Of a DNA stretch of 64,000 nucleotides, positions 2,736 through 52,477 are shown piece by piece. The stretch is taken from assembly GCA_041671645.1 (NCBI GenBank), contig JBAZBD010000001.1, forward strand, positions 479,234-543,233. The letters are read 5' to 3'. The position numbers and the translations under genes were made by a program. Numbering within the stretch: position 1 is the stretch's first letter; each line of letters begins with the position of its first letter. Under the pieces are notes generated by a model. The model was not told the origin of the DNA, searched no databases, and was given only the letters and a program-made list of their open reading frames with translations. The stretch is from Patescibacteria group bacterium. GTDB taxonomy: Bacteria; Patescibacteriota; UBA1384; XYA2-FULL-43-10; 1-14-0-10-43-13.

Positions 2736-2738
2736 TTA

Positions 2739-27644: not shown

Positions 27645-27662
27645 GGAACAAAGAGAATTGTT

Positions 27663-36634: not shown

Positions 36635-36640
36635 GCTTAG

Positions 36641-36830: not shown

Positions 36831-36859
36831 TTGACAAAGTATTTACAACATGGTATAAT
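36831..36859 (+). promoter_or_regulatory. Consensus sigma70 promoter P2 (TTGACA-17-TATAAT)
   Basis: Exact consensus hexamers with a 17-nt spacer. Confidence 0.75.
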
Positions 36860-38781: not shown

Positions 38782-41700
38782 ATGCCAGGGCCAGAAGGCA
38801 TTCCTTTAGACGATCTGGGTTTAGATCTTGGTGATCCGATGCATCTACCTGGCGATGTTGATTTTGTTGATGACAAGCCTATCAGTGTTGACAGGTCTGA
38901 CCTTCGTCTGGAGGCAACTATGGCGAAGGCTGCCCTTCACGCTAAGACAGAGAAGGGCAAACGCGAGACCAGTGAAGCCAAGAGGAAAGAAGAGGTATTC
39001 AAGACTATATTTGGTACGATCGAAAATATCGGTATATTTAGGGACGCAGATAAGGATCGACGGGCACAAAGCTACGGAAAGTCCTGGATTGGAGATTTCA
39101 ACAGGTCGCTGGCAGGTGTTAAGACCAAGAATTCAGAGGGTATTTATACTGGCCAGACAGTTGGACAGGAAATTGAAACTAAGGCCAAGAAAATCGCACT
39201 CAAGACTGTTGTTACGATAGCAATCGGTGCAGGAATCGCATCGATATTTGGTGGCGTTAGCATCCCTATTATATTGGTGGGTGCTGCTGGCGGGGCAATT
39301 GTCAGAGGGGTGAACGAAGCTCGCCGGATTTGGAATGGCAAAGAGCGAAATATGAGGGGTGAGATAGAGGCCGCCAATGAAGCAGTTATCCAGGAGATCG
39401 ATAAACTAATTGGTGACGCCGCTCTCAAGTATATGGAGCTCGAAGAGGCGCATCTTGGCGAGGAAGGATATCAACCAGACGCTGACCCAGAATTTCAAGC
39501 AATATTATATAGAGCAATTGATTTGGCTCATGATGATACGAAGCGAAAGGTGAAGGTCGTAAAAGTTCCGATTGGCCCTGATATGACCAAGACGAGGAAG
39601 GAGTATGTAGTAGTTGACCCAAGCGAAGAGCCTCCGGCGGCTGCCGAGACAGCGGCTCCTGCGGCCGATGGGACTACTCCGGCTCCTGAAGCAGCCAAAG
39701 ATCCAAAGGTATTTACGGTCGCCGAGAAGGAAGCAGAGCTTCGTAAACTTGAGAAGAAAAATGAATCTATATCCGATTGGTGTGCTACGATTGGTAGCCT
39801 TGGCACATCTATAGTGGCCAAGGTCTTCGCCGGTGCGAAGATGGCAGAGACTGCGGCAAGCCAGGGTGCCAACGCGATTGAAGCACAGCTGAGGGCGGGC
39901 GAGCAAGTTGCGAATATTGATCTAAACGGCGACAACATAAAACATACGATTGAATTGGCACGAGATCAGGCAACTCAAAAGATTACCGATACAGTGATAT
40001 TCCTCAAGGAAGCAGGCAAGGATCTGATGGGCGCAGCCAAGGATGCTCCGAATTACAATCCTTGGGTCAATGACATAATCAATAAGGCTGGCGAGCACTG
40101 GCATACTGTCAGCGAAGCCGCCAATGATCTTACCCAAGTCATAGACATCATCAAGCACAATTTAATCAGTGCCGAATTGCACAAGCAGCTCGTGACTGTT
40201 TGGGCAACTGGTGCTGCAGGACTATTGGCAACTCTTGGTAATAGCTGGGGTAGGGAAGCGACTCAAAACCTAGAAAAAGCCCAAGAAGAGCAATCAGTCG
40301 AACATGGTCAGGTTGTTGCAGGGATGAAGAAAATTCTGCCCAAGCCGATTCCGGAAACTTCTGTCGAGCCAGTGATCGAGACTCCTCCTGAGGAGATTAT
40401 TACTCCTGCAGAAAAACTGAAGCTTGCTGAGGCGGCTGGCCTCGTCTTCACTGTGACAGCGGAGTATTATTTCGAGAGAGATGGCAAAGGCTTCGATCTT
40501 GATAAGGGTGATCGTGCCGTCATATTGGATGAGGATGATTTGGGCACATGCAAAATTGCTTTTTATAGCGCCGATGGAGAAGAGAAATTTCCAGAGAAAA
40601 CATTCATTTTTGACGCGGAAGAAGCAGATCTTATTTTTGGTGCTGGCTGGTCTGAAGAGAGAAGAGCGGAAAGAGAGTCTTCTGATGATGACGGAGATCC
40701 AGATGCCCACGTCGACCAAGATGAAACTGATCAGTCAGAGATGGACAAGACTGACGCAGAATTTGCCACGGAGATGCATGAAAAATACAAAAACACAGAG
40801 TTAGAACTGACTCTCGATGAAGATGGCAAAGTTACCAAAATCGGCAAGGATAATTGGCCCAAGAATAGAGAGAACAGCGGAGTCTGTGAGAACGCGAATA
40901 CTCCAAACGGCCGATATAAAGTCAAGATTTCAAATATTGAGTCTGTCAAAGATAGTATTAATGTGAAGTTTGATCTGAAAGAGCAAGAGCTGGGAGCCGG
41001 ATTCGAGGGCTATACCCACGCTGGATTCCTTAAGTCTGATATGTCAGATGGTATTCCTCAAACGATAATCTTCGGGGCTAGCGCAAACGTACGTGAGATT
41101 GTATTGCTCGACAAAGGTGGCAAGAAGTGGAAGGTACAATCTGCCGTTGGCGATGATAAGCTCGCCATCGTCGACTGTAACCCTGACGGAACACTAGGGG
41201 ACAAGAAGCACAACCCGACCGTGAGCCAAATCAAAGAAGTTTTCATTGAGTGGTATCACAAAGAAAAACCTACGGTCAAGCCTCCTGAGAAGAAAAAACC
41301 AGAGGCTTTGCCCACGGAATTCACTGATAAGTTTACCGAGAGCGGCAAGATAGATTCTGATGCGTTTATAGACGCTATCGAAGCAGACTATTTCGATAGA
41401 AATATTAATGGCGGGAATGGTGGCCGTGTAGTAGTGGATTATGGTGGCGGCGTCGCATCGTTATTCCAGAAAATTGGGGAGGATCAATATGAAGTTTATG
41501 ATTTCGACCTTGAGAAATCAGATATAATCGCAGGTCAGTCGCCCAAGCCTCGCAATAGGGGTGATATCGAAGTAAATCAGAGTAACAAAGTCGGGAAGTT
41601 ATGGCTCGAGAAGAGCTATTTCGGCACCGACTCGTTCAAGAAGAATTGGGCTACTGAGAAGACACTTAACGAATTAGATGTAAACAGCGTGGTTCATTTG

Positions 41701-43968
41701 AGTGACAATATTACGGCCACTGTCCCGAAAGAGCCGGGCGCACCAAGCGTTGGTATGGCTGGTTTGTCATTTAAAATATCGATGGTTGAACGTCAGACAG
41801 GCACTCTTGACCAATTTACATGCGAAATTGTTGGCAATCCCGACAAAGTGGACAAAGCATTCGAAGGGTATGTTTTTCTGGGCGGTATCTTGGACGTTAA
41901 AGCTACAATCAACAGAAAAGTCATGAAGAGAATTTTGGAAGGTGATTCTCTCTCGTTTCCCCTAAAACTCGAGAAGAAGAAAGAAACGGTTCCTGCCGCC
42001 GATGTAGAGAAGAGATTAGCCGAGCTACAAGTTGGCGAAGAATTACCCATTGGCGATTCTATGAAGATTGAAGTGGAAGATGGCCCGACTGTCTTTCTCA
42101 AGGGACTGAAATACAAGATTACGAAATTGCCTTTTTTCGATGGTCGCGATCGTGATCAATTTTCTGGTCATATGGTGAGCGAGAATCCCGAGAATCTTGA
42201 GAAAATAAATAGTGAATTTTCGGAATATGAATTTTCGGCGATTGAGAATATTTCGTTCGGGATAACCATACCAGGGATAAAGAAAAGTCTTGCCGGCAAA
42301 GAAGTAATTTTCAGCTATACAAAAGATGAAGTAAAGAAGAAGGTTGAGAAGCCAGCGACCAAGGATGAAGAGACTGATCCAAACGCAAAAGAAGCGAAGG
42401 AGAAAATCAATCAAATCCTGGAGCTATCGACCAAGCTGGGTGCTCTCAAAACGAAAGTTGCCAAGCAAATAGAGGCATCAGTGGATAGGCTTACTAAATT
42501 AAATGCCAATCCCGATCGCATCAAGTCCTTGGAGATCATCGGACGAAAATTAGACCGTGTGGATCCAACGAAAATTGATGAGAAAATGACAAAGGCGGTG
42601 AAAGCCAGCCGTAAAAAAATTGATGAATACAAAGCTTTTCCGGAAGGCTTAATTGATTCTTACAAAGTTAAAGAGATACAGTCTGTCCGCTCCAAGTACT
42701 TTGAATCGCTTGACGAATTTGTTGGCATATATAATGACTTTTTGGGATCGCTTGAGCATGCTGATACCGACGAAGAAAAGGCCGAATTTATTTCACTCTC
42801 TAGTGAACTGAAGGCCGAGATTGAGAAGCTTGGGCTTGTCAGTGTCGAAGCCAAGACGGGGGACAAATGTGATTATTCAACAATGGAGGCCTCAGAAGGA
42901 TCCGAGACGGGTGACGAGAAATACAAAGGTAAGGAGATTGTCGAGCGCGTGATTAAGCAAGGGTTTATCTTCGACGGCAGTCTTCAGCTTCACGATGGTA
43001 AGCTAGGCGATGTTGCAAAAGCAGCACAAGTTACTGTCTACAAATATGTTGAGGGGGGAGAGACTCCGCCTGTGCTCGAAAATAAAGCAGTGATTCCAAT
43101 CGAGAAGTTGCAAGAGAATGTGCCTGCAGGTTTTCGGTTGTATGGCCGTGCAGAATTTTATCAGGATGATATAGCTGAAGCGCTGGATTCCGTTGATTCT
43201 GAAGCAGATGAACCTGTTCCGACTCTGAAAGCAAAGCCGTTGCTCTACGGCGATGGCGACAAATTCTGGATTATTATACCTGAAGACGGCAAATTCAATC
43301 GATATTCGCTGGATAAGGATTTCAATATTGTTGGAGAGGCTGAAATATTAACCGTTGACAATTTCAAGCCCAAGAAAGAAATCGTTGCGTTATACAGGGA
43401 TAAATTGACTTCCGAGAAAGCTGATGAGGATATCCGGGAACTGGTCGAAGGTAGCGTGGTCCCCCTGGGCTACAATGTTCGCGTTGAAGTAGGGGGCGGC
43501 AAATATTGGACTTTTTCGCCGTCATTCTCTGTCCGTGTGACTCAGATTGTGCCGAATTCGAACGAATCCACACCAGCTGGCCCCATTGAATTCTATAATA
43601 CTGAAATCATGCTTGTGAACGAAGTTCAAGAAGAGATGGCGGAATTTGATGAAGAAGCAAATATATATGTCAATAAATATGGTAATAATGTAAGACTTCG
43701 CTTTAGCCCTGAGCAGATGAGAGACGTCTTGATTGGCAATAATGTAACGCTAACAGAAGACAACGTTATCAAGGGCACTCCTGTGGCAGAAGAAATTTCC
43801 AAAGAAGCCGCCGATAACTCTGATATCAAGGAATTGGCCGAAGTTGCCAATGACCAGAACGACGCATACGCGAACCAGAGGAAGAAGAAAAAGAAAAATG
43901 ATACTAAACCGCCAGGGCTGGAAGACAAATCAAAGAGTGCAGAGAATGATTTGGGGCTAAATGGATAA
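38782..43968 (+). CDS. Giant acidic protein (1728 aa) with one hydrophobic segment near aa 140-175; unknown function
   Basis: Uninterrupted 5.2-kb ORF. The only hydrophobic stretch is IALKTVVTIAIGAGIASIFGGVSIPIILVGAAGGAIV. Strongly D/E/K-rich. No catalytic motif recognised. Confidence 0.7.
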   Translation: MPGPEGIPLDDLGLDLGDPMHLPGDVDFVDDKPISVDRSDLRLEATMAKAALHAKTEKGKRETSEAKRKEEVFKTIFGTIENIGIFRDADKDRRAQSYGKSWIGDFNRSLAGVKTKNSEGIYTGQTVGQEIETKAKKIALKTVVTIAIGAGIASIFGGVSIPIILVGAAGGAIVRGVNEARRIWNGKERNMRGEIEAANEAVIQEIDKLIGDAALKYMELEEAHLGEEGYQPDADPEFQAILYRAIDLAHDDTKRKVKVVKVPIGPDMTKTRKEYVVVDPSEEPPAAAETAAPAADGTTPAPEAAKDPKVFTVAEKEAELRKLEKKNESISDWCATIGSLGTSIVAKVFAGAKMAETAASQGANAIEAQLRAGEQVANIDLNGDNIKHTIELARDQATQKITDTVIFLKEAGKDLMGAAKDAPNYNPWVNDIINKAGEHWHTVSEAANDLTQVIDIIKHNLISAELHKQLVTVWATGAAGLLATLGNSWGREATQNLEKAQEEQSVEHGQVVAGMKKILPKPIPETSVEPVIETPPEEIITPAEKLKLAEAAGLVFTVTAEYYFERDGKGFDLDKGDRAVILDEDDLGTCKIAFYSADGEEKFPEKTFIFDAEEADLIFGAGWSEERRAERESSDDDGDPDAHVDQDETDQSEMDKTDAEFATEMHEKYKNTELELTLDEDGKVTKIGKDNWPKNRENSGVCENANTPNGRYKVKISNIESVKDSINVKFDLKEQELGAGFEGYTHAGFLKSDMSDGIPQTIIFGASANVREIVLLDKGGKKWKVQSAVGDDKLAIVDCNPDGTLGDKKHNPTVSQIKEVFIEWYHKEKPTVKPPEKKKPEALPTEFTDKFTESGKIDSDAFIDAIEADYFDRNINGGNGGRVVVDYGGGVASLFQKIGEDQYEVYDFDLEKSDIIAGQSPKPRNRGDIEVNQSNKVGKLWLEKSYFGTDSFKKNWATEKTLNELDVNSVVHLSDNITATVPKEPGAPSVGMAGLSFKISMVERQTGTLDQFTCEIVGNPDKVDKAFEGYVFLGGILDVKATINRKVMKRILEGDSLSFPLKLEKKKETVPAADVEKRLAELQVGEELPIGDSMKIEVEDGPTVFLKGLKYKITKLPFFDGRDRDQFSGHMVSENPENLEKINSEFSEYEFSAIENISFGITIPGIKKSLAGKEVIFSYTKDEVKKKVEKPATKDEETDPNAKEAKEKINQILELSTKLGALKTKVAKQIEASVDRLTKLNANPDRIKSLEIIGRKLDRVDPTKIDEKMTKAVKASRKKIDEYKAFPEGLIDSYKVKEIQSVRSKYFESLDEFVGIYNDFLGSLEHADTDEEKAEFISLSSELKAEIEKLGLVSVEAKTGDKCDYSTMEASEGSETGDEKYKGKEIVERVIKQGFIFDGSLQLHDGKLGDVAKAAQVTVYKYVEGGETPPVLENKAVIPIEKLQENVPAGFRLYGRAEFYQDDIAEALDSVDSEADEPVPTLKAKPLLYGDGDKFWIIIPEDGKFNRYSLDKDFNIVGEAEILTVDNFKPKKEIVALYRDKLTSEKADEDIRELVEGSVVPLGYNVRVEVGGGKYWTFSPSFSVRVTQIVPNSNESTPAGPIEFYNTEIMLVNEVQEEMAEFDEEANIYVNKYGNNVRLRFSPEQMRDVLIGNNVTLTEDNVIKGTPVAEEISKEAADNSDIKELAEVANDQNDAYANQRKKKKKNDTKPPGLEDKSKSAENDLGLNG

Positions 43969-44758
43969 TATCAACGCAAACAATACAGAATTACGTTTTC
44001 AATCGATCAAGGAGCTCGAGGGGAATGAGCGACTCCTTGCTCTAATTGTCAACCAAATCATGGCTATGAATGAATGGATCGAAGAGATCCATAAGTTTGA
44101 AGCCGAAGCCAAAGTCGAAACAGTGCACACGAAGCGGGTTGCTGAGACGCCTGGCGCCCACACACTTGACCATGGGCGTGTGGTGGCTCATGCCTCAAAA
44201 ATTGAGGAAAGCGCGAAGAAAGATCTTCGAGGTTATCACGCTAGATTGAATAAATTGAAAAGAGCGTTGGCTACAAATCTTGCTCACCTGTTCAGGGATC
44301 TGTCGGCTGAGGGTGACGCGGAGCAAGCTAGGGTTCGGATTCAGGGATTTCTCCAATCAATCAGCGACGAGAAAGCCCGTGTAGACATGGCCGAGCATCG
44401 TTATCCAAATGAAATCGAAAAGCTTAGTATTTATAATGCGCTGGCCAAGAGAGTCGAGGAGTCACGCAAACCGAAAGTTGTCGAACTAGAGGCGAAGGTA
44501 GCTGAGGCCGCGCCAAATCTAACCCCAGCATCTGTCGAGCCGCCTGCAGTTGTGGAAGACCCAGTTATCCCACCACCAGTTGTAGCCGAGGAATCAGTCA
44601 AAGTGGGTGATACTCCACCGGCGGGAGCGACTCCGTTTGTTGACGACGAGCCGGTTGAGGACAAGATTAGCCAGATCGAAAAAATGGGGTCCATATATGA
44701 GCTTACGACCAAACAGCTTGCACCATATTACCCTGGTGAAATAGAAAAAGCAGCATAA
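43961..44758 (+). CDS. Hypothetical protein (265 aa) with Pro/Val-rich C-terminal region
   Basis: 8-nt overlap with the giant gene suggests translational coupling. No recognised domain. Confidence 0.5.
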   Translation: MDNINANNTELRFQSIKELEGNERLLALIVNQIMAMNEWIEEIHKFEAEAKVETVHTKRVAETPGAHTLDHGRVVAHASKIEESAKKDLRGYHARLNKLKRALATNLAHLFRDLSAEGDAEQARVRIQGFLQSISDEKARVDMAEHRYPNEIEKLSIYNALAKRVEESRKPKVVELEAKVAEAAPNLTPASVEPPAVVEDPVIPPPVVAEESVKVGDTPPAGATPFVDDEPVEDKISQIEKMGSIYELTTKQLAPYYPGEIEKAA

Positions 44759-44772: not shown

Positions 44773-47346
44773 ATGGCAACAAGTTCAAATTATTACAACT
44801 CTACTTCTCAATCACGGAACACTATATCGGCTACCTCAACCCAGGCAGATATGTCCGGGTGGTTTTGGTTTTTCGGCACGACTATCGTCCTTACAGCTCT
44901 GGTTTTGATTGTCGTCTGGATTCGCAAGATGTTGATTCGAAAGTCACAGGTCCAGATCACCCGTGACTGGATAATGTTCAAGGTGATGACGCCGAAGGAG
45001 CGCCATGCAGAGGAGGATGACCAGCGCAAGAATTTTCAGGAGATGTTAGGAGTAATTGAGCCGTTTTATGCCAATCTTCACGCGCTTTTTGACAACAATT
45101 TGTTCGCCAAAATGTTCAAACGCCAGACCCATATATCTCTCGAGCTGGTGGCCAAGGAAGGTCGGATATTCTTCTATGTCGGCTGTTCGAAAAAGATCTC
45201 TTCGATAGTTCTGAAGAATCTCCAGGCCCAATATCCTCACTCTGAGGTTCGCGAGGAGAAGGATTATTCAATTTTTCCAGACAAGCCGCTCAAAATGGAT
45301 GTGACCAGCGTCACCCTGACACGGCGTTACATGTTTCCGATCAAAACTTACAAAATGCTTGAAGAGGATCCGCTCAACGCGATCACCAATTCACTCTCGC
45401 GATTGACAGAGAATGAATTGGCCGGCATCCAGATATTGGTACGACCAACCTCAGGGTTATGGCGATTGGCGGGCGAGCGAACTGCCTATAACATTCAACA
45501 TGGCAAATCTCGAGTCTCATATTCCAACACTTGGTGGGTCAGAGCAGGAGAGTCATTCTTCAATTTTGTTAGCAGCTCGGCTAGCATGGTGGGCGGCAAC
45601 AAGGAGCAGAACGAGACAGAGTATCAGAGCTCGATGAGAAAATTGACTCCAATGCAGGAGAACACAGTCAAGCTACTCGGCGAGAAGGCAGCCAAGATCG
45701 GATTTGAATGCCAAATCAGAATTGTCGGAGTAGGGGAGACCGACAAGGACGCCGAGAATGTGACGAAGAATATTGCTGCCTCTTTTAACCAGTTCAACGC
45801 ACCTGACTCCAATGGACTTTGGAAAAAGGAACCAAAAAAGAAAAACGAAGAATTGGCCAACTATATTTTCCGAGTATTTTCATCTGGTAGTGTCTCAATA
45901 TTAAATACCGAGGAGCTTGCTTCTCTTTATCATTTCCCAAATCGTTATATTGATACTCCAAATATCGTCTGGCTGTTGTCTCGCAAAGAGCCGCCACCAG
46001 CCAATTTGCCCTCCGAAGGTACTATCGTTGGTAAATCGCTCTATCGAGGTCAGGAGAAATTCATTCGTATCAAGGAAGCAGATCGTCTACGCCACATCTA
46101 CCAAATCGGTAAAACTGGTGTGGGTAAAACTGTTATGTTCCAAAACATGATTCGTCAGGATATCGAAGAGGGTAAGGGTGTTTGCTATCTTGATCCAAAT
46201 GGTGACGCCGCCGAGTGGATATTGAATCACATTCCGAAGGAACGCGCTGAGGATGTCATCTACTTCAATCCGGCTGATAGAGAGAGGCCATTTGGTTTGA
46301 ATATGCTGGAGTGGAAGACGCCAGAGCAGAGAGACTTCTTGGTCCAGGAATCTATCCAAATATTTTACAAATTGTTTGACCCCAATCAGACTGGTATGGT
46401 TGGTCCGCAGTTTGAGCACTGGATGAGAAATGCGGCATTGACTTTGATGATGCATCCAGACGGCGGCACTATCATCGATATCCCACGCCTCTTTACTGAT
46501 CCAGATTTTGAAAAGGATCGTGTCAAATATGTGACAGATCCTGTGGTTAAATCTTTCTGGGAAAAGCAGATGGCCAAGACGGCTGATTTCCACAAATCTG
46601 AAATGTTGAATTACTTCACCTCCAAGTTTGGTAGATTCATGACCAACGACATGATGAGGAATATTCTAGGTCAGACCAAGTCATCCTTTGATTTCCGCGA
46701 GATCATGGACACCAAGAAAATTTTGATCTGCAATCTCTCCAAGGGATTGATCGGCGAAATTAATGCCTTCTTGCTTGGTATGGTGATCGTATCCAAGATT
46801 GCCATGGGTGCCTTCTCCCGTCAGGAAATTCCCGAGAATGAACGTGTTCCTTTTTACCTCTATGTTGATGAGTTTCAAAACTTTATTACCGATGTTTTCG
46901 CCACGATTTTGTCAGAGTCTCGTAAATACAAACTGAGCTTGAATATCACCAACCAGTACATCGAGCAGTTAGATGAGAAGATTCGTGCCGCTGTCGTGGG
47001 CAACGCTGGTACTTTGATTGCCTTCCGCATGGGCGCCGCTGACGCAGAATTCTTCCAGAAGGAGTTTGACCCGCTCAAGCCTGATGATCTGACAAATATT
47101 GACAAGTATAATTTCTACATTAAGATGCTGATCGACGGCGCGCCAACCCGACCTTTCAATGGTCAGAGCATCTGGCCAGAGGACTTTGAAGGCAATCCCA
47201 AGCTAGGGACCGCGATTAAAGAGCTCTCAAGGCTGAAGTATGGCAAACCCAGAGAAATCATAGAGACGGAGATATTGGAGAGATCGAAGGTTGACAGTAT
47301 TGATCTGCCAGGTCTCAAATCAACTGGCGGAGCACCGACGTCATAA
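44773..47346 (+). CDS. Membrane-anchored FtsK/HerA/TraD-superfamily ATPase (type IV secretion coupling-protein-like), paralog 1
   Basis: N-terminal TM (WFWFFGTTIVLTALVLIVVWI). Walker A GKTGVGKT. Walker B …LYVDEFQNF. HerA/FtsK-type arginine-finger/sensor SESRKYKLSLNITNQY. Conserved block …YHFPNRYIDTPNIVW… shared with ORF 49205. Confidence 0.7.
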   Translation: MATSSNYYNSTSQSRNTISATSTQADMSGWFWFFGTTIVLTALVLIVVWIRKMLIRKSQVQITRDWIMFKVMTPKERHAEEDDQRKNFQEMLGVIEPFYANLHALFDNNLFAKMFKRQTHISLELVAKEGRIFFYVGCSKKISSIVLKNLQAQYPHSEVREEKDYSIFPDKPLKMDVTSVTLTRRYMFPIKTYKMLEEDPLNAITNSLSRLTENELAGIQILVRPTSGLWRLAGERTAYNIQHGKSRVSYSNTWWVRAGESFFNFVSSSASMVGGNKEQNETEYQSSMRKLTPMQENTVKLLGEKAAKIGFECQIRIVGVGETDKDAENVTKNIAASFNQFNAPDSNGLWKKEPKKKNEELANYIFRVFSSGSVSILNTEELASLYHFPNRYIDTPNIVWLLSRKEPPPANLPSEGTIVGKSLYRGQEKFIRIKEADRLRHIYQIGKTGVGKTVMFQNMIRQDIEEGKGVCYLDPNGDAAEWILNHIPKERAEDVIYFNPADRERPFGLNMLEWKTPEQRDFLVQESIQIFYKLFDPNQTGMVGPQFEHWMRNAALTLMMHPDGGTIIDIPRLFTDPDFEKDRVKYVTDPVVKSFWEKQMAKTADFHKSEMLNYFTSKFGRFMTNDMMRNILGQTKSSFDFREIMDTKKILICNLSKGLIGEINAFLLGMVIVSKIAMGAFSRQEIPENERVPFYLYVDEFQNFITDVFATILSESRKYKLSLNITNQYIEQLDEKIRAAVVGNAGTLIAFRMGAADAEFFQKEFDPLKPDDLTNIDKYNFYIKMLIDGAPTRPFNGQSIWPEDFEGNPKLGTAIKELSRLKYGKPREIIETEILERSKVDSIDLPGLKSTGGAPTS

Positions 47347-47372
47347 AGTCGAAAGTCCATAAAGTCCATAAA
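47344..47372. repeat. AAAGTCN tandem repeat (aaagtcgaaagtccataaagtccataaag)
   Basis: Directly after the ATPase stop. Same repeat family as inside tgt (36246-36273) and ileS (9826-9858). Confidence 0.6.
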
Positions 47373-47386
47373 GCATATGGTACAAA

Positions 47387-47413
47387 ATCAGCACGAAAAT
47401 GTGCTGATTTTTG
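47387..47413 (+). terminator. Rho-independent terminator
   Basis: ATCAGCAC-GAAAAT-GTGCTGAT followed by TTTTG. Confidence 0.85.
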
Positions 47414-47515
47414 TAGTTAATATTAGAACATAAAAGTGTTGACGATGGCGATCTAATGTGGTAAGATATTCCACGAGGTCAAAAATAATTGCCGTGAAAA
47501 CGGCTCAAAACAAAA

Positions 47516-48019
47516 ATGCCAACTGAGAAAGATCTCTCAAATATCAAACAGCTCCTTGATTCAGCCGAGAACAATATTCGCTTGGCACGCTCCCTAATGT
47601 TTTCGCGTGAAGTGTTAGTCAAGAGCGAGCGTAGCGAAGCCTCAAACGAAGAGAGCGAGAGCGTCGTGGAAGGGATATTTGACGGCGAGCGGATGGTTAC
47701 TTCAAGCGGAAAGACTTATTCAGTCCCTGCGAATTATGCCTCGAAATCCAAGCTCGTAACTGGCGACACTCTCAAGTTGACTATTCCTGAAGACGGAAGC
47801 TTTATTTTCAAACAAATCGGTCCAGTCGAGCGCAAGAAACTGGTTGGTTTGTTGGAAGATATGGGCGACAATGTCTATACGGTTACGGCTGGCGGCACCA
47901 AATATCGTGTTCTGGCCGCCTCAATCACTTATTTCAAAGCTAAAATCGGGGACAGGGTAAGTATTCTTGTCCCAGAAGATTCAGCAAGCGAGTGGGCAGC
48001 AGTCGAAAATATTATTTAA
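47516..48019 (+). CDS. Hypothetical protein (167 aa)
   Basis: ORF with acidic N-terminus. No recognised domain. Confidence 0.45.
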   Translation: MPTEKDLSNIKQLLDSAENNIRLARSLMFSREVLVKSERSEASNEESESVVEGIFDGERMVTSSGKTYSVPANYASKSKLVTGDTLKLTIPEDGSFIFKQIGPVERKKLVGLLEDMGDNVYTVTAGGTKYRVLAASITYFKAKIGDRVSILVPEDSASEWAAVENII

Positions 48020-48042
48020 ATATTTAATCAATAAAGTAATAA

Positions 48043-49083
48043 ATGGAAAATCGCATGACAGTCAAAAACTTTTCTCCCTACAAAATTGTAAGAGAGGCAA
48101 TCAGCGGCTTAAAACCAAACGAACGTAAGGTTATAGCTAGCCGTTTTGGTGTTGATACTGATCACAAAACACTGTCATCCATCGGTCGTGAGCTTGGACT
48201 TTCACGCGAAAGAATTCGTCAGATCGAAAAAGACGGTCTTCGCAAGCTTGCTAAATCTATCGTTGAAGATAACAACTCATATATTATCGATATCGTTGAC
48301 GCTTTTGAGAAACAGGGCGGTATTTCTAGCCACAACAAAATCGCTGAGAAATTCCTCGACGAAGTAATGCACAAAGACAAGAATGAGTTCAACTCGCTTC
48401 ACCTGATCTTCCTTTTGATGCCACAGATCATCAAGATCGAGCGTACACAAGAGCTCGAAGCTGGTTGGATGCTTGGGTCTGTCTCCAAAGATGACATAGT
48501 CTCAATCATCGATGCTTGGGTCACACATTTGAAGAAACAAAAACGTCCAGAGAATATTGATATTTTGGTCCAATCTCATCCAACTCAATCCAAATACAAG
48601 ATGACCTTCCTTTCAGAACTTCCAGAAATTTCCAAACGACTTGTTCGCACCGAATCTGGTGAAATCGGTCTGTCTGTCTGGCCTGAAGTCAACCCAAAGA
48701 ATGTCAGAGACAAAATCTACTTTATTCTTAAAAAGTATGAAAAACCTCTCCATTTCAACGAAATCGCTGCCAAGATCAAGGATCAGAGCTTCGATGGTAA
48801 GGACATTGTCCGCGCTACCGTTCACAATGAGTTGATTGCTGATGAACGTTTCGTCTTGGTTGGCCGTGGGATCTACGCTCTGTCAGAATGGGGCTACAAA
48901 GAGGGGACTGTCGCCGAAATCATTTCTGAAATTCTATCCAAGAATCCCGAAGGCATGACCGCAGAGGATATCGTCAAGGCAGTGTCCAAACAGAGAATTG
49001 TGAAGAAAAATACCATCCTTATAAATCTTCAGACAAAGCCACTATTTAAAAAAGTTGGCAAGTCAAAATTTGCTCTAAAATAA
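48043..49083 (+). CDS. Sigma-70 region 4-like HTH DNA-binding protein with uncharacterised C-terminal domains
   Basis: N-terminal SGLKPNERKVIASRFGVD…TLSSIGRELGLSRERIRQIEKDGLRKL matches sigma70 region 4 (-35 recognition HTH). The remaining ~270 aa are unassigned. Confidence 0.6.
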   Translation: MENRMTVKNFSPYKIVREAISGLKPNERKVIASRFGVDTDHKTLSSIGRELGLSRERIRQIEKDGLRKLAKSIVEDNNSYIIDIVDAFEKQGGISSHNKIAEKFLDEVMHKDKNEFNSLHLIFLLMPQIIKIERTQELEAGWMLGSVSKDDIVSIIDAWVTHLKKQKRPENIDILVQSHPTQSKYKMTFLSELPEISKRLVRTESGEIGLSVWPEVNPKNVRDKIYFILKKYEKPLHFNEIAAKIKDQSFDGKDIVRATVHNELIADERFVLVGRGIYALSEWGYKEGTVAEIISEILSKNPEGMTAEDIVKAVSKQRIVKKNTILINLQTKPLFKKVGKSKFALK

Positions 49084-49106
49084 GCACATTGTCAGTACTC
49101 AAAGAA

Positions 49107-49140
49107 AGCTCACAGGCCTTGGCCTGTGAGCTTTTGTGTT
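49107..49140 (+). terminator. Rho-independent terminator
   Basis: Perfect 12-bp stem AGCTCACAGGCC-TT-GGCCTGTGAGCT followed by TTTTG. Confidence 0.9.
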
Positions 49141-49204
49141 TGTGGACTTTATAAACATTTATTTGTATAATTAGATTAATGTCTCTATCGGCCAATTTTT
49201 ATAT

Positions 49205-52200
49205 ATGAATTTTATACTATACGTAATTTACTTCGTCTTAATCGTTGGACCAATATACTTAATATGGGCAATTGCTAATATGAACAAAAAAATCAAAAAA
49301 GTCGACTGGCTAGCCGCTCAAGAATACACAGTATTGCGTATAGATGTACCGCGCAACAACGAGAAGTCGCCGATGGCCGCTGAGCAAATGTTTGCCGCTA
49401 TTCATGGTATCTACTCCGAATCTGCCGAATTCCAAAATCATCTGAGCTTCGAGATAGTCTCAAAAGATAAGTTCATTCAATTCTATATCTATTTGCCTTT
49501 GCACTTGAAGGATTTCGTAGAGGGTCAGATCTATGCTCAATATCCGACTGTCGAGATTAATGAAGTCGATGATTATGCCCAGAATGCCAGTATTGGCTCC
49601 AAAGATTATGCCATCTGCGAACTTAATTTGACCAAGCCAGATGTCTATCCAATCAAAACCTTTACAGATTTCGATGTAGACCCGATTTCATCTATCACTT
49701 CCGTCATGACCAAGCTTGGCGAGGATGAGGAAGTCTGGGTTCAATTTGTGATCAAGCCAATAGGGGATGAGTGGCAGGAAAAAGGTCATGAAATGGTCTC
49801 TTCTGTCCGAAACGGCACCAATATTGCCAAGGTTGGACTCGGCCGTGCTATCGCAAGTGGTTTTGCAAAATTTGGCAAAGCTTTAGTCTTGCAGGCGATC
49901 AGACCTGGCGTCGACTTGGATCAGCCAGAAAAGGAAGTCAAATTGCCATCTGCCGTAGAGGACGCCCTCAAGAATATTGAGCTCAAAATCACCAAACTTG
50001 GATTCGAGACCAAAATCAGGGTATTGGCTCTCGGGACCGATCCAACTCTGACCAAAGCTAAATGCCAAAATATCGCTGCAACGTTCAAGCAGTTTAATTC
50101 GACCACCCTAAACGGTTTCAAAATAGGGGAAGTCCATATCAACAATCAGACCTCATTCAAGGATTTCGTATATCGCTCGTTTGAAGATGACGGCGCGATC
50201 CTCAATATCGCTGAAATTGCTTCAATATTCCATTTACCATCTAGTTCAGTCTCGACCCCAAATATTGTTTGGTCTGGCTCCAAGAAGGGAGAACCACCTT
50301 CCAACTTACCGCTTCGAACAAACACTGAAGAATCTCAATTTACAGTGCTTGGACTTACGAATTTTCGGAATAATTTACAGGAGTTTGGCATCAAAACTGA
50401 TGATCGCCGACGACATATTTATATTATTGGTAAATCTGGTACTGGTAAGTCCACATTGATCGAGAATATGGTGATCAACGATATCGCGGCCGGCAAAGGC
50501 GTAATCCTAATTGATCCGCATGGAGAAACTGCGGACAAGATTTTGGCGTGTACTCCTGACAGTCGTATCAACGATGTTATAGTCTTTGATCCTTCCGATC
50601 GCGAATTTCCTGTCGCCTTCAACCTATTGGAAACGGTCGATGATGATTTTAAGGGGATTGTCGCATCTGGTTTTGTTGGAATCTTCAAGAAGATATTTGG
50701 TGAATCATGGGGACCTAGACTTGAGCATATTCTTCGAAATACTGTTTTGGCGCTTCTGGATTGTCCCGATTCCACCATGCTGGACATCCCCAAGATGTTG
50801 ACCAACAACAGGTTCCGCGACAAGATCGTCGAGCAGGTTAAAGATTCGGTGATCCGAGACTTCTGGGTCAATGAATTCGCACAATATGATAGCAAATTTA
50901 GGACTGAGGCTGTTTCACCAATTTTGAACAAAGTTGGGCAGTTCCTGGCCACTTCGACTATTCGAAACATTGTCGGTCAAGCACATTCTCGTCTGAACAT
51001 TCGTGAAGTCATGGACCAGCAGAAGGTAATGATTGTAAATCTATCTCGTGGCAAGATCGGAGAAGACAACTCTGCGCTTCTCGGCGCGATGATGATTACC
51101 AAGATTCAGCTTGCCGCGATGAGCCGTGCTGATGTCACAATCGAGAATAGACCAGATTGTTTCCTCTACGTGGACGAGTTTCAGAACTTTGCGACTGACT
51201 CTTTCGCTACGATTCTTTCCGAGGCTCGAAAGTATAATCTGTCCCTTACTATTGCTCATCAATACATCGCTCAAATGCCTGACCCGGTCAAAGAAGCAGT
51301 ATTTGGCAATGCGGGTACCCTGATCTCATTCCGTGTTGGTGGATCTGACGCTGTGACGCTGGTCAAAGAGTATGCTCCTGTTTTTGAAGAAAACGATATG
51401 GTTAATCTCGAGAAGGCTCATATCTATATCAAACTTCTAATCGATGGTATAGCACCGCCAGCTTTCTCTGCCAGAACTCTGCCACCAGTCGCCAAATTGA
51501 CCGGCAACTATGATCAGGTTGTGAACCAATCTCACCAAAAATATTCTGTCGCGCGCAGTACCGTCGAGGCTCAGATTGATGGTAAGTCAAGTCAGGAAGA
51601 GGAAGAGCTGAAAAGAGAGGCTGAAATCTTCAAATCTGGCGGACTCGAAGCGCTTCTGACAAAACGTGGCGCCGCTTCACCTAGTTCGGAGCCAGAGGAC
51701 CGCGCTCCCGAAAAGGAAACCGTCAACTCCGCATTTATCCCAGAGGAGGCGCAAGCCGAGCCAAAGCCTCTTGTAGACTCTGAGCCAGAAGATAAACCTG
51801 TATACAAGTCTGAACCAGTATCTCAGCCAGAATCAGCAAAGCTAGAAGAACATGCTAATCGCGAAGACGTAGCCTCAGTAAAACATGAAAGCCATGAAAA
51901 ACCCGAAGAGCCTACTAAGTCAGACGAGCCAAGAATCCTGAAGTGGCAGAACGTTATAGAGGGCAAGGTCTACAAGGAGCGCACAGCACGAGGTAATGTG
52001 AAGTGGTATGTTGGCGACGAGGTCGACGAGGAGAAGCTTCTCAAGGCCGGTGTAGTCTTGGACGACAAGGCGAAGCGAATCATTGCGCTAACCGCCAAAC
52101 TCGCAGATCATGATGGCACCCAGAAAAAAAATGTAGTAGGGGAGAGCGATTCTATCCGTCCCGAAAAAGTGGACAATCTATTGGAGCCAAAAGAAGTACC

Positions 52201-52477
52201 AAGCACTGCGATCGTAGAATCAAATTTGCTTCCAGAAATTGCGCCAAATATATTACCTGCTTTTCAACCGGAGAATCTACCAGAGAAACACGAAGCAGAC
52301 AGTCCTGCGCTTGCCCACTCGATATTGTCGCCGAATGAAGAGAAGGAACTGCCGAAGACTGATCATGCTGAGGCGCCAACTAAACATGCCGAATCTCATC
52401 ATGTGACGCATCATCACGCTACCCATCTAGCGGAAGGCCAGTCGGTTAAGCTACACCACAAAGAGGAAGATAAATAG
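49205..52477 (+). CDS. Membrane-anchored FtsK/HerA/TraD-superfamily ATPase, paralog 2, with long low-complexity His-rich C-terminal tail
   Basis: N-terminal TM. …FHLPSSSVSTPNIVW… block. Walker A GKSGTGKST. Walker B FLYVDEFQNF. EARKYNLSLTIAHQY. The C-terminal ~330 aa is E/P/K-rich and ends HAESHHVTHHHATHLAEGQSVKLHHKEEDK. Confidence 0.7.
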   Translation: MNFILYVIYFVLIVGPIYLIWAIANMNKKIKKVDWLAAQEYTVLRIDVPRNNEKSPMAAEQMFAAIHGIYSESAEFQNHLSFEIVSKDKFIQFYIYLPLHLKDFVEGQIYAQYPTVEINEVDDYAQNASIGSKDYAICELNLTKPDVYPIKTFTDFDVDPISSITSVMTKLGEDEEVWVQFVIKPIGDEWQEKGHEMVSSVRNGTNIAKVGLGRAIASGFAKFGKALVLQAIRPGVDLDQPEKEVKLPSAVEDALKNIELKITKLGFETKIRVLALGTDPTLTKAKCQNIAATFKQFNSTTLNGFKIGEVHINNQTSFKDFVYRSFEDDGAILNIAEIASIFHLPSSSVSTPNIVWSGSKKGEPPSNLPLRTNTEESQFTVLGLTNFRNNLQEFGIKTDDRRRHIYIIGKSGTGKSTLIENMVINDIAAGKGVILIDPHGETADKILACTPDSRINDVIVFDPSDREFPVAFNLLETVDDDFKGIVASGFVGIFKKIFGESWGPRLEHILRNTVLALLDCPDSTMLDIPKMLTNNRFRDKIVEQVKDSVIRDFWVNEFAQYDSKFRTEAVSPILNKVGQFLATSTIRNIVGQAHSRLNIREVMDQQKVMIVNLSRGKIGEDNSALLGAMMITKIQLAAMSRADVTIENRPDCFLYVDEFQNFATDSFATILSEARKYNLSLTIAHQYIAQMPDPVKEAVFGNAGTLISFRVGGSDAVTLVKEYAPVFEENDMVNLEKAHIYIKLLIDGIAPPAFSARTLPPVAKLTGNYDQVVNQSHQKYSVARSTVEAQIDGKSSQEEEELKREAEIFKSGGLEALLTKRGAASPSSEPEDRAPEKETVNSAFIPEEAQAEPKPLVDSEPEDKPVYKSEPVSQPESAKLEEHANREDVASVKHESHEKPEEPTKSDEPRILKWQNVIEGKVYKERTARGNVKWYVGDEVDEEKLLKAGVVLDDKAKRIIALTAKLADHDGTQKKNVVGESDSIRPEKVDNLLEPKEVPSTAIVESNLLPEIAPNILPAFQPENLPEKHEADSPALAHSILSPNEEKELPKTDHAEAPTKHAESHHVTHHHATHLAEGQSVKLHHKEEDK

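Follow-up and report, generated by a model that had tools for sequence, protein, structure and literature searches.

What do two related ATPases of the translocase kind do when they are encoded close to each other in the reduced genome of a Patescibacteria bacterium, and do they divide their roles? The question arises from a 64-kb stretch (the window, 64,000 nucleotides) of the chromosome of a Berkelbacteria-like member of the Patescibacteria (CPR), in which a sequence-only reading had described tandem paralogous ATPases, here P1 and P2. Both open reading frames are present exactly at 44773-47346 and 49205-52477, as are the strings quoted from them (GKTGVGKT, GKSGTGKS(T) and the C-terminal ...HAESHHVTHHHATHLAEGQSVKLHHKEEDK). 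The genes are paired but not strictly tandem, since two co-directional genes (47516..48019 and 48043..49083) intervene. They belong to a conserved chromosomal cluster of seven genes, which is listed here together with two elements located upstream of P2:

38400..38780, + strand: small gene, 126 aa, first of the conserved cluster; counterpart of the DUF5663 gene of relatives
38782..43968, + strand: giant membrane-anchored protein, 1728 aa, fast-evolving
43961..44758, + strand: 265-aa protein, function unknown; 8-nt overlap with the giant gene, 14 nt before P1
44773..47346, + strand: P1, tail-less DUF8128 ATPase, 857 aa
47516..48019, + strand: 167-aa protein between P1 and P2, function unknown, kept in the Berkelbacteria-like clade
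48043..49083, + strand: DNA-binding protein, 346 aa, Sigma70 region 4 and HARE-HTH; upstream partner of P2-type ATPases
49104..49145, + strand: likely intrinsic terminator after the HARE-HTH gene, a 14-bp GC-rich hairpin followed by a U-rich tract
49143..49171, + strand: promoter-like site before P2, TGGACT-17-TATAAT, weak evidence only
49205..52477, + strand: P2, tailed DUF8128 ATPase, 1090 aa

Housekeeping genes flank the cluster on both sides, namely tgt and ribosomal protein genes on one and secDF on the other. This location is identical in relatives, in which synteny is kept at protein identities of 57-69% (63-69% for P1 and 57-59% for P2). The GC content is even across the cluster (0.41-0.47), and no VirB4, relaxase or integrase gene was found in the 64-kb window, nor were channel components or a substrate identified there. 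The cluster is chromosomal and vertically inherited, and a mobile element is not its setting. Of the accompanying genes, the first has no Pfam match and is 27% identical (E=9e-10) to the DUF5663-annotated gene of a related locus, L085. The giant protein, which has a hydrophobic segment at residues 137-178, also yielded no match in a Pfam search; its residues 86-377 are 31% identical to a 1269-aa protein at the equivalent position in L085, where relatives carry genes of 531-1279 aa. Family searches gave no match for the 265-aa protein, whose position is taken by a ~277-aa gene in L085 and L086, or for the 167-aa protein, which is 55-56% identical to the same-position genes of L083 and L085 and was found by tblastn in 4 of 80 loci. 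The intergenic RNA holding the terminator hairpin folds with z=-3.4 relative to shuffles, and sites of the TGGACT-17-TATAAT type are as numerous in the region as expected by chance.

The proposed duplication was borne out by pairwise alignment (BLASTP), in which 35% of the 768 aligned residues are identical between P1 and P2 and 56% are positives (E=7e-150); it spans both a ~350-aa N-terminal domain and the ATPase domain. This similarity is far beyond chance, and the two are true paralogues of the translocase or coupling-protein kind, as had been suggested. Relatives carry both copies (L001-L005, L080 and L083-L086, with 33 contigs common to both hit lists), and the paralogue pair therefore withstands the suggestion that relatives might hold only one. 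A neighbour-joining tree and reciprocal scores separate the P1 group from the rest, with a bootstrap of 61/100 for the P1 clade and a P2 group that may be paraphyletic. In the Saccharimonadia (Saccharibacteria), both types are present at unlinked positions. The duplication appears ancient, at moderate tree support. The family, which comprises 21,244 cluster representatives, spans many CPR classes, most of those sampled; the pair is genuine and lies within an already catalogued, uncharacterised family.

In P1 and P2 alike, one membrane helix at the N-terminus is followed by a DUF8128 domain (PF26449) and then by a TrwB/VirD4-like P-loop ATPase domain interrupted by an all-alpha insert:

P1, about residues 27-58: membrane helix
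P1, about residues 60-430: DUF8128 domain
P1, residues 431-840: ATPase
P1, 46108..46131, + strand (residues 446-453): Walker A, GKTGVGKT
P1, 46855..46884, + strand: Walker B and invariant YVDEFQNF block
P1, residues 840-848: conserved C-terminal VDxIDLPGL
P2, 49205..49285, + strand (residues 1-27): N-terminal membrane helix by hydropathy; AF2 helix 2-38
P2, 49316..50389, + strand (residues 38-395): DUF8128 N-domain, AF2 pLDDT 84.5, VirB4-N-terminal-domain-like fold
P2, 50390..51604, + strand (residues 396-800): ATPase domain, RecA-like core
P2, about residues 480-604: all-alpha insertion
P2, 50429-50452, + strand (residues 409-416): Walker A, GKSGTGKS(T)
P2, 51161-51190, + strand: Walker B/YVDEFQNF

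The database protein identical to P1 (P0121) bears PF26449, and that identical to P2 (P0001) bears PF26449, PF10412, PF01935, PF02534 and PF12696; in P2 itself PF02534, PF10412 and PF12696 exceed their gathering cut-offs. The N-terminal helix of P2 is kept in orthologues (occupancy 0.91). A reported divergence of the P2 Walker A motif did not hold, as both motifs fit the canonical GxxGxGK[ST] and the substitutions are conservative. The Walker B hhhhDE is kept in both proteins inside the invariant YVDEFQNF, and among 87 P1- and P2-type sequences the Walker A residues G, K, G, G and K are invariant, as are Walker A/B and about 130 other columns altogether. The reported difference is thus immaterial, and, with all catalytic motifs kept, both proteins are probably active ATPases.

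Known systems resemble this architecture in parts. Type IV coupling proteins (TrwB of R388, VirD4, F TraD, DotL/IcmO and Cagbeta) share the P-loop RecA-like domain with its all-alpha insertion and the membrane anchoring, in addition to the three Pfam models above threshold in P2. The P2 model aligns with TrwB at a TMt of 0.63-0.69 (Foldseek), and a profile search of the PDB matched only TrwB (1.4e-5) and DotL (1e-4). In contrast to coupling proteins, P1 and P2 have one membrane helix rather than two, carry a ~350-aa VirB4-like domain between anchor and ATPase, and are encoded by chromosomal, vertically inherited, duplicated genes without a nearby relaxase or VirB4. They also lie far below the curated equivalog cut-offs, the NCBIfam coupling-protein models being missed widely (48 bits vs a cut-off of 366). 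The family HMM scores under 15 bits against the canonical PcfC, TraD, TcpA, VirB4 and FtsK references, so that the family is about equally far from each of them in sequence. With VirB4/TrwK the proteins share a two-domain layout, and in the PDB the DUF8128 N-domain resembles nothing but the N-terminal domain of VirB4: the 13 best Foldseek matches of the P2 N-domain all belong to TrwK/VirB4 (E 1.4e-6 to 1e-3, TMq 0.38-0.45), those beyond being at chance level. Unlike VirB4, however, the ATPase domain has no match to VirB4 sequence models, the proteins carry their own membrane helix (and P2 also a long tail), and CPR genomes encode a separate VirB4 and TrsD.

A relative from outside the CPR is an 833-aa 'DUF87 domain-containing protein' of plasmid pBM69 (Bacillus methanolicus), which aligns with P2 over both domains (25% identity, E=7e-53) and scores 73.5 bits for the N-domain and 154 bits for the ATPase with the family HMM. 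It differs in being encoded on a plasmid, where its gene is flanked by a primase-like gene and by a Replic_Relax gene, and in that an N-terminal membrane helix is not evident and the long tail is absent. Its cluster also includes, further downstream, genes for conjugal transfer and for a VirB4 (AAA_10); its position is that expected of a coupling protein. Within the Patescibacteria, only 148 of 5,713 T4CP homologues are located near virB4, and their exaptation to other functions has been raised (Quinonero-Coronel et al., 2025; PMC12102498). Table S3 of that study also contains near-tandem 't4cp2' pairs in Paceibacteria (gene ordinals 83/85, 604/605, 273/276 and 324/330). These homologues, and SEML1_0293 and SEML1_0142 of Southlakia epibionticum (PMC10633639), belong to the same family as P1 and P2 and are likewise chromosomal and virB4-unlinked. 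In the text searched of the two papers (PMC12102498 and PMC10633639), we found no description of the two-lineage paralogue split, the VirB4-like N-domain, the conserved HTH partner or the tail architecture.

The tail of P2 (residues 761-1090, 330 aa) is rich in E (14.8%), K (10.3%), A (9.4%), P (7.9%), S (7.9%) and H (5.2%). The sequence-only reading had portrayed it as disordered, and while its length and composition were confirmed, full disorder was not, with ~204 of the 330 residues predicted to be disordered (823-906 and 971-1090) and residues 769-822 predicted to form helices. The order in the Berkelbacteria-like clade is helix, linker, 64-aa folded module, linker and terminal HLxEGxxVxL:

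51671..51922, + strand (residues 823-906): linker 1, E/P/S/K-rich, predicted disordered, pLDDT below 50
51923..52114, + strand (residues 907-970): mini-module, beta-hairpin and two helices, pLDDT 82-89
52115..52420, + strand (residues 971-1072): linker 2, predicted disordered, variable
52385..52459, + strand (residues 1061-1085): His-rich stretch with 9 His, lineage-specific
52424..52459, + strand: conserved C-terminal motif HLAEGQSVKLHH, family consensus HLxEGxxVxL

Linker 1 is poorly conserved among 120 orthologues (occupancy 0.45-0.65, identity about 0.1). The mini-module reaches a column identity of up to 0.68; its HMM matches the Berkelbacteria-like P2 clade only, and PDB and Pfam searches gave no match, which leaves it an orphan by sequence. 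The pattern 'EGxx[h]x[h]' occurs within the last 14 aa of 85% of the 120 orthologues, compared with 0.17% of control windows, and related terminal motifs are found in other classes too, including tailed P1-type proteins. P2-type proteins across the CPR bear tails (median about 120 aa), and P1-type proteins are mostly tail-less. The tail is hence kept throughout the P2 lineage and is no acquisition of this genome, and since a related motif also occurs in tailed P1-types, loss on the P1 side is no less likely than gain on the P2 side.

Flexible C-terminal extensions with a short conserved docking element at the end or within are also known from coupling proteins: that of F-plasmid TraD binds TraM, and the tail of DotL binds the IcmS/IcmW/LvgA adaptors. 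The P2 motif is unrelated to these in sequence, and the P2 clade adds a folded 64-aa mid-tail module without detectable relatives. The histidine cluster, by contrast, had been singled out in the sequence-only reading, and it might make the tail a metal-binding element central to P2 function. Nine His lie within 25 C-terminal residues of P2, and His often flanks the terminal motif elsewhere ('HLxEG', '...LHH', '...[LF][RH]H'). However, a count of 8 or more His within the final 45 aa is confined to P2 and the two proteins most closely related to it, P0002 and P0003 (3 of 120 orthologues; median 1), and it is the embedded, hydrophobic-alternating HLxEGxxVxL that is conserved, not the His run. A central metal-binding function is thus improbable, and the cluster may be a local elaboration around the putative docking motif rather than the functional core.

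The conserved neighbour of P2-type genes bears on the division of roles. Sigma70 region 4 covers residues 19-70 and HARE-HTH residues 228-283 of the 346-aa protein (Pfam bits 57 and 44.6), and the HTH gene immediately precedes that of the P2-type ATPase at 55 of the 80 loci, which come from several CPR classes. In S. epibionticum, the P2-type gene SEML1_0293 also adjoins the HTH gene, SEML1_0294; by Tn-seq the former was scored non-essential and the latter essential, as was SEML1_0142, a 1019-aa 'TraM recognition domain' ATPase (Wang et al., 2023, Table S1; PMC10633639). The HTH protein must consequently have at least one role besides any shared with the P2-type ATPase. By its name, length, domain layout and synteny, rather than its sequence, SEML1_0142 is probably of the P1 type, its local gene order matching the P1-type loci L091 and L092. 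The 2025 paper (PMC12102498) credits S. epibionticum with a single T4CP homologue, a non-essential one, whereas Table S1 of PMC10633639 contains this second, essential T4CP-like gene. Divided roles, which had been proposed by analogy with secretion ATPases, are therefore plausible: P2-types have tails and a conserved neighbour gene, P1-types are mostly tail-less, and in S. epibionticum one T4CP-like gene is essential and the other dispensable.

Several other functions have to be weighed. The ATPases and the HARE-HTH protein might pump or pull DNA by themselves, independently of a T4SS, like FtsK, SpoIIIE or ComFA and not as couplers of a secretion channel, possibly in the uptake of scavenged or transforming DNA or in chromosome or nucleoid segregation. 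The DNA-binding protein encoded next to P2 is consistent with this, as are the Saccharimonadia gene order Pth-DprA-TopA-HTH-P2type (DprA being a transformation mediator), the near absence of virB4 linkage in the published counts, the description of the S. epibionticum T4SS cluster as having no recognisable coupling protein, and the structural kinship with HerA and FtsK. However, the DprA-TopA adjacency is limited to one class and SecDF adjoins the pair in others, the FtsK Pfam model reaches 18.5 vs a cut-off of 24, the closest non-CPR full-length homologue lies within a conjugation-type cluster, and deletion of ComEC removes competence while viability is unaffected, whereas the probable P1-type gene is essential. 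Autonomous DNA handling is accordingly unlikely, if still worth considering. A lower probability is assigned to a VirB4-like function, in which the N-domain would dock membrane partners and the ATPases would energise pilus or channel assembly and not select substrates. It would account for the N-domain matches, for the best Foldseek E-values of the full model, which are to VirB4 over about 900 columns, and for the single helix and soluble N-domain unlike those of canonical coupling proteins. Yet the AAA_10 signature scores 16.2 vs a cut-off of 27.5, the PDB profile search returns TrwB and DotL and misses VirB4, the TM-scores for VirB4 are modest (0.41-0.45), and both CPR genomes, with bona fide VirB4 and TrsD genes, and pBM69 encode VirB4 separately from the family member.

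Weak similarity to TraD, TrwB and VirD4 and the plasmid location of some family members could point to ordinary conjugative coupling proteins that arrived horizontally with an integrated conjugative element, as its cargo or remnant. This is very improbable given the position between tgt/ribosomal genes and secDF, shared with relatives at 57-69% identity, the uniform GC content, the absence of integrase, relaxase and VirB4 from the 64-kb window and the occurrence in most CPR classes sampled. Hardly any probability falls to an anti-phage defence function of the HerA or MADS kind. The PADLOC model mad8 matches the ATPase domain (E=2e-16 for P2 and 2.5e-11 for P1) and weak HerA matches occur, but all are limited to the generic ATPase core, other defence genes are absent nearby, conservation is near-universal, syntenic and vertical in reduced genomes, and one paralogue type is probably essential.

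We therefore favour, with moderate confidence, ancient, Patescibacteria-wide paralogues that act as coupling-protein-like motors, P2 being the receptor form and P1 the core motor. Several observations count against the coupling-protein part: channel components, a relaxase and a substrate were not identified in the window, one helix and a VirB4-like domain replace the two-helix membrane domain, the NCBIfam models are missed, and virB4 is rarely close by in the published counts. As coupling-protein-like translocation motors, P1 and P2 would assemble into membrane-associated ATPase rings, accept a macromolecule as substrate (DNA, or a nucleoprotein or protein) and pass it to a channel. In P2, about 200 disordered residues would serve as a recruitment tether for the folded module and the strand-like HLxEGxxVxL peptide, which, by analogy with the TraD peptide and TraM or the DotL tail and its adaptors, may dock a partner; the best candidate is the Sigma70_r4/HARE-HTH protein encoded directly upstream. 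P1 would represent the tail-less core motor, of the type that is probably essential in S. epibionticum, a relative that can be cultivated.

The two translocase-like ATPases had been read from the sequence alone as duplicated genes, and their paralogy is borne out: BLASTP aligns the tail-less P1 with the tailed P2 over 768 residues at 35% identity and 56% positives (E=7e-150), and the open reading frames lie where they had been placed, at 44773..47346 (+, 857 aa; P1) and 49205..52477 (+, 1090 aa; P2). The alignment starts near residue 80 of P1 and residue 47 of P2 and extends through the ATPase domain, and thus covers an N-terminal domain of ~350 aa as well as the P-loop domain. The genes had also been called tandem, which holds for their common strand and cluster but not for adjacency, since two genes and 1.86 kb lie between them. 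The quoted Walker A strings are found in the ORFs, as is the His-rich C-terminal string; the Walker A divergence claimed for P2 falls away, both motifs being canonical GxxGxGK[ST], and Walker B sits in an invariant YVDEFQNF block in both proteins. The Walker motifs (GKTGVGKT and YLYVDE in P1, GKSGTGKS and FLYVDE in P2) are invariant in 87 family members. P1 and P2 are both membrane-anchored VirB4/VirD4-superfamily ATPases with intact catalytic motifs.

Both genes are part of a cluster of seven co-directional genes separated by tiny gaps, which is flanked by housekeeping genes:

Gene order around P1 and P2 in the window
Upstream: housekeeping genes for IleRS, FtsW, NusG, Mfd, DprA, TopA, RecR, CysRS, Dus, a release factor, Pth, L1, L10 and Tgt
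38400-38780, +, gene 1, 126 aa
38782-43968, +, gene 2, membrane-anchored protein of 1728 aa
43961-44758, +, gene 3, 265 aa
44773-47346, +, gene 4, P1, 857 aa
47516-48019, +, gene 5, 167 aa
48043-49083, +, gene 6, 346 aa with Sigma70_r4 and HARE-HTH domains
49205-52477, +, gene 7, P2, 1090 aa
Downstream: SecDF, a pseudouridine synthase, RmuC and an AddA-like helicase-nuclease

The nearest named relatives of the database proteins matching P1 and P2 are Candidatus Berkelbacteria, and the same gene order between tgt and secDF recurs in relatives with 63-69% identity in P1; their annotation assigns the small first gene to DUF5663 and both ATPases to DUF8128 (PF26449). Between the HARE-HTH gene and P2, a 14-bp GC-rich hairpin followed by a U-tract (49104-49145) is likely to be a terminator, the intergenic RNA folding better than 199 of 200 shuffles (z=-3.4). 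Together with a promoter-like site in front of P2, this suggests that P2 may form its own transcription unit. Across the 64 kb, no Rfam family and no tRNA gene reached threshold.

Elsewhere in the window, a type IV pilus gene set occupies 165-3476, with a prepilin peptidase (819-1586) and three pilin-like ORFs that carry the N-terminal methylation motif (165-761, 1601-2119, 2667-3476). Two surface-type proteins with DUF11/DUF7619 repeats (26067-27644, 27663-29222) are preceded by two ORFs without a family match (23506-26063), and GC near 0.50 together with negative GC skew sets this region, 23506-29222, apart from all the rest of the window. The ~800-nt gap after tgt, which holds no convincing ORF and no Rfam match, contains two perfect matches to the sigma-70 promoter consensus (TTGACA-17-TATAAT, with TG upstream), 225 nt apart at 36606-36859. 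The Mfd-like ORF at 13678-15576 encodes just 632 aa, roughly half the usual length of Mfd proteins, and may be a reduced form; it carries UvrB-interaction, CarD/TRCF-RID and helicase domains.

The family placement of P1 and P2 combines features of two known groups. P2 exceeds the Pfam thresholds for T4SS-DNA_transf (29.6 bits), TrwB_AAD_bind (PF10412; 26.4 bits against a cut-off of 20.5, with P1 at 17.3) and TraG-D_C (25.3 bits), and P1 exceeds that for TraG-D_C alone. PF26449 is annotated on the database proteins identical to P2 and P1 and on all listed homologues, these assignments being precomputed Pfam annotations; it was missing from the Pfam copy scanned, which is why that scan showed no domain in the N-terminal 390 residues. 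A PDB profile search with the 87 family members returned TrwB (1.4e-5) and DotL (1e-4) as its sole significant matches, with VirB4 absent from them, and a single-sequence PDB search gave a weak match of P2 to TrwB (E=0.003) and none for P1. In the AlphaFold2 model of P2, which is confident for residues 1-820, a membrane helix at the N-terminus leads into an alpha/beta N-domain; the RecA-like domain that follows carries an all-helical insertion (residues 480-604) separating Walker A from Walker B. In Foldseek this model resembles TrwB (TMt 0.63-0.69), as well as Cagbeta and HerA, and matches TrwK/VirB4 over ~900 columns.

Each protein has one hydrophobic helix (residues 27-58 in P1, 1-27 in P2), followed by the soluble DUF8128 domain of ~350 aa. 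Modelled alone (pLDDT 84.5), this domain has TrwK/VirB4 as all of its top 13 Foldseek matches in the PDB (E 1.4e-6 to 1e-3, TMq 0.38-0.45), below which the list drops to chance-level ferredoxin-like folds; the likeness to VirB4 is one of fold alone, at 7-9% identity. Since the PDB matches of the N-domain are confined to TrwK/VirB4, the predicted architecture is a VirB4-like N-domain plus a coupling-protein-like ATPase behind a single membrane helix. The NCBIfam coupling-protein equivalogs (TraD, CD1115 and TrbC) are far missed: the best scores, 48.3 bits for TIGR03743 and 42.9 for NF045973, compare with cut-offs of 366 and 250, and the TraD, CD1115 and CedD matches are all sub-threshold. Against reference ATPases from pCF10, pCW3, F, pBM69 and E. 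coli, the family HMM stays below 15 bits for PcfC, TraD, TcpA/B, PrgJ, TraC, TcpF and FtsK. At these scores it does not discriminate between type IV coupling protein (T4CP), VirB4 and FtsK references, and the DUF8128 family is accordingly placed as a distinct branch of the superfamily.

The sequence-only reading asked whether relatives carry both copies, and the pair is present in the homologous loci L001-L005, L080 and L083-L086 of other genomes. The order P1, 167-aa gene, HTH gene, P2 is kept in L001, L002, L004 and L083-L086; P1 and P2 abut directly in L003, L005 holds P1-type and P2-type matches in one continuous stretch, and in L080 a P1-type gene lies 6 kb upstream of the HTH-P2 pair. 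For 33 of the listed P1 orthologues, the length of the longest contig equals that of a listed P2 orthologue. An exhaustive search with P1 reached 21,244 cluster representatives at E<=1e-3, and a distance tree rooted on the homologue of plasmid pBM69 sets a diverse P1 group apart from the rest. Support is moderate, the neighbour-joining bootstrap recovering P1-group monophyly in 61/100 and P2-group monophyly in 33/100 replicates, so that the P1 group may have arisen within a P2-like grade. The genome scan took in only the 80 loci closest to P2 and is therefore biased to P2-type copies, which all 80 carry; the single copy within 10 kb in 74 of them is not equivalent to one copy per genome.

When the search was seeded with a P1-group representative, it yielded 119 proteins of 943-1102 aa with PF26449, all with P1 as the better-scoring match (mean 588 bits, against 436 bits for P2); organism names given for a few of them are Candidatus Saccharimonadales or Saccharibacteria. 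In Saccharimonadia the P1-type genes adjoin gyrBA, far from the pair of HTH gene and P2-type gene, and their neighbours have no sequence similarity to those of P1 in the window. Saccharibacteria hence possess both lineages, located at unlinked sites, and the duplication apparently predates the divergence of these classes. Table S3 of a recent census contains near-tandem "t4cp2" pairs in several Paceibacteria genomes, which may be DUF8128 members (Quinonero-Coronel et al., 2025; PMC12102498). The same study counted 5,713 T4CP in 2,918 Patescibacteria genomes, a ratio that does not translate into two DUF8128 genes per genome, since the table mixes 't4cp1' and 't4cp2' (PMC12102498).

Outside Patescibacteria (CPR), relatives occur on 535 plasmid or chromid records, mostly non-mobilisable. 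Among them, an 833-aa homologue on Bacillus methanolicus pBM69 aligns over both domains (E=7e-53; N-domain 73.5 bits). Its gene is flanked by a primase-like and a Replic_Relax gene, and farther downstream the same cluster holds conjugal transfer genes and one for VirB4 (AAA_10); this is the site expected of a coupling protein. This position agrees with the published conclusion that the T4SS of Patescibacteria derive from monoderm conjugation systems. A Sulfitobacter mediterraneus plasmid locus (L081 7941-9128) encodes a 395-aa stand-alone ATPase domain without the N-domain, 39% identical to P2 (family HMM 362 bits), among transposases and recombinases on a non-mobilisable plasmid. Public records name Bulleidia sp., Chlamydiae bacterium and Pedobacter sp. 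as the source of three family carriers (loci L026 and L061, protein P0517), which are probably mis-binned CPR contigs.

A conserved neighbour of the tailed lineage is a DNA-binding protein. Among the 80 loci closest to P2, 55 have a Sigma70_r4/HARE-HTH gene directly upstream of the P2-type ATPase, an adjacency that spans Saccharibacteria, Nomurabacteria, Buchananbacteria, Moranbacteria, Peribacteria and UBA2196, while the outer neighbours of the pair are DprA-TopA in Saccharimonadia and SecDF in others. In a Saccharimonadia locus (L013 5660-12619) and ~30 others of that class, the order reads Pth, DprA, TopA, Sigma70_r4/HARE-HTH gene, P2-type ATPase, and continues on the opposite strand with FtsQ, MurG, FtsW and MraY; TopA lies at most 4.5 kb upstream in 30 of the 58 loci with enough sequence. 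Vertical inheritance, conserved clustering, retention of the DNA-binding neighbour and a conserved tail architecture characterize these genes.

Transposon-insertion sequencing in Southlakia epibionticum bears on both lineages. The P2-type gene SEML1_0293 (921 aa; PF10412, PF12696, PF01935) is non-essential, and the adjacent Sigma70_r4/HARE-HTH gene SEML1_0294 is essential (Wang et al., 2023; PMC10633639). Normalised insertion reads in SEML1_0293 fall about four-fold over the time course (5817, 2940, 1372) while its neighbours stay flat (Table S1, PMC10633639), which hints at a fitness cost. The essential gene SEML1_0142 encodes a "TraM recognition domain" ATPase of 1019 aa, in which the P-loop domain spans residues 381-800 (PMC10633639). 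A ~140-aa gene lies immediately upstream of it and genes of ~190 and ~535 aa on the opposite strand, matching the P1-type loci L091 and L092; on this local gene order SEML1_0142 probably belongs to the P1 group. The 2025 survey describes a single, non-essential T4CP homologue in S. epibionticum (PMC12102498).

The P2 tail had been described as ~330 disordered residues. Its last 330 residues are indeed rich in E, K, A, P and S, with 5.2% His, but the disorder is partial: in the AlphaFold2 model helices extend to residue 822, residues 823-906 and 971-1090 are disordered (pLDDT <50), and residues 907-970 fold into a beta-hairpin and two helices (pLDDT 82-89). P2 orthologues (950-1180 aa) can be aligned with the tail, and a 120-sequence alignment displays conservation at 761-820, a variable linker at 821-905, a conserved block at ~908-960 (identity up to 0.68), a second variable linker and a conserved extreme C-terminus. 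The 907-970 mini-module has no Pfam or PDB relative and no other copy in the window; it is confined to the Berkelbacteria-like P2 clade and absent from Saccharibacteria-type tails. At the C-terminus, P2 orthologues carry the motif HLxEGxxVx[LI]; "EGxx[h]x[h]" occurs in the last 14 residues of 85% of them, compared with 0.17% of control windows from the same tails.

P2-type proteins of other classes (830-1050 aa) have low-complexity, often basic tails that frequently end ...E[LI]x[LF][RH](H), with a terminal h-x-h-[RHK] in 42% versus 2% of controls. The post-core tail has a median length of 120 aa in the P2 group versus 17 aa in the P1 group. Since tailed P1-type proteins also exist and end in related motifs, a tail closed by a strand-like motif seems to be a long-standing feature of the family. 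Saccharimonadia tailed P1-type proteins end "DEIYIDxRGxLHH" (90% versus 0.8% elsewhere in the protein), and a P1-group subclade of 1116-2006 aa has the terminal motif "KLxxGE[VI][FY][VI]DxxGNV"; the Berkelbacteria-like P1 is without a tail and ends in a short conserved "VDxIDLPGL". Members of this 1116-2006-aa subclade, among the P1-group representatives P0254-P0271, have C-terminal extensions of 300-1200 aa, all ending 'KLxxGE[VI][FY][VI]DxxGNV[IV]xGE'.

P1 and P2 probably act as coupling-type ring motors, with P1 as the putative core motor. The P2 tail would be a flexible tether presenting a docking peptide, to which the Berkelbacteria-like clade would add a small folded module. Like the C-terminal docking tails of F TraD and DotL, it is a disordered extension with a conserved short terminal motif; the docking of F TraD to TraM and of DotL to its adaptors is established, and by analogy the partner of the P2 tail could perhaps be the HARE-HTH protein. 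A metal-binding role, suggested by the histidine cluster at the tail's end, seems very unlikely. The cluster is present in P2 but otherwise only in its two closest relatives (83% and 75% identity), and the median His count in the last 45 residues of orthologues is 1.

As for the motor itself, type IV coupling proteins share with P1 and P2 the intact Walker A/B P-loop domain, the all-alpha insert and the TrwB similarity, but they typically have two TM helices directly before the ATPase, whereas P1 and P2 have one helix and the ~350-aa DUF8128 domain. They are also genetically linked to a relaxase, a VirB4-based T4SS or both, and a scan of the ORFs >=150 aa in the 64-kb window detected no VirB4, VirB6, relaxase or integrase; only 148 of the 5,713 CPR T4CP homologues lie near virB4 (PMC12102498). 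A DNA pump working independently of any T4SS is, in our estimation, rather unlikely. That the pair are VirB4-like assembly ATPases is decidedly unlikely: the fold of the N-terminal domain is common to both, but the VirB4 ATPase sequence models are not matched (AAA_10 16.2 bits against a cut-off of 27.5 in P2, no match in P1), and the family HMM gives <9 bits to PrgJ, TraC, TcpF, Orf16 and the pBM69 VirB4. FtsK/SpoIIIE, marked by its motor domain and the DNA-recognising gamma domain, was rejected, PF01580 reaching 18.5 bits against 24 near Walker A only and the family HMM scoring E. coli FtsK at 4 bits and TcpA/TcpB at 6-14 bits. So was HerA, which would call for a full-length central domain and a HAS-barrel: the DUF87 match is confined to residues 402-443 around Walker A, the Foldseek likeness (TMt 0.49-0.53) is weaker than to TrwB, and no gene like NurA, its partner nuclease, was found in the window. 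A defence ATPase is barely conceivable; the PADLOC mad8/HerA matches are generic, and gene context led us to drop this reading. A mobile-element remnant is highly improbable: the window is ordinary chromosome with even GC content.

The pair is not a new kind of thing, since DUF8128 is already catalogued in Pfam and CPR T4CP homologues were counted in 2025 (PMC12102498). In the literature searched, we found no mention of a split into two lineages, an N-domain resembling that of VirB4, a coupling to the HTH gene, a modular tail and its terminal motif, or the essential/dispensable contrast of the Tn-seq tables. The most far-reaching proposal, which we consider unlikely, is that DUF8128 is a third, unrecognised VirB4/VirD4 lineage, with a VirB4-type N-domain and a coupling-type ATPase, that was chromosomally fixed early in Patescibacteria. 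Duplication would have made the P1 type an essential core motor and the P2 type a receptor, dispensable and tailed, whose terminal peptide would dock the essential Sigma70_r4/HARE-HTH protein; all of them together would form a T4SS-independent machine for DNA or nucleoprotein translocation at the centre of the host-dependent lifestyle.

Patescibacteria, which live on other microbes and have very few genes, account for a large fraction of bacterial diversity. Nearly all of these gene-poor organisms retain DUF8128 ATPases, often in two copies, and the ATPases therefore likely matter for this lifestyle. In the published view, the coupling-protein homologue of Patescibacteria is unlinked to an essential T4SS and dispensable. 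The picture changes to one of apparently two old lineages, one dispensable by Tn-seq and the other with a probable member that is essential, both with a VirB4-like N-domain and the tailed one coupled to an essential HARE-HTH DNA-binding protein. These targets are testable in the sole genetically tractable species, and the family may represent an evolutionary link between VirB4 and the coupling ATPases.
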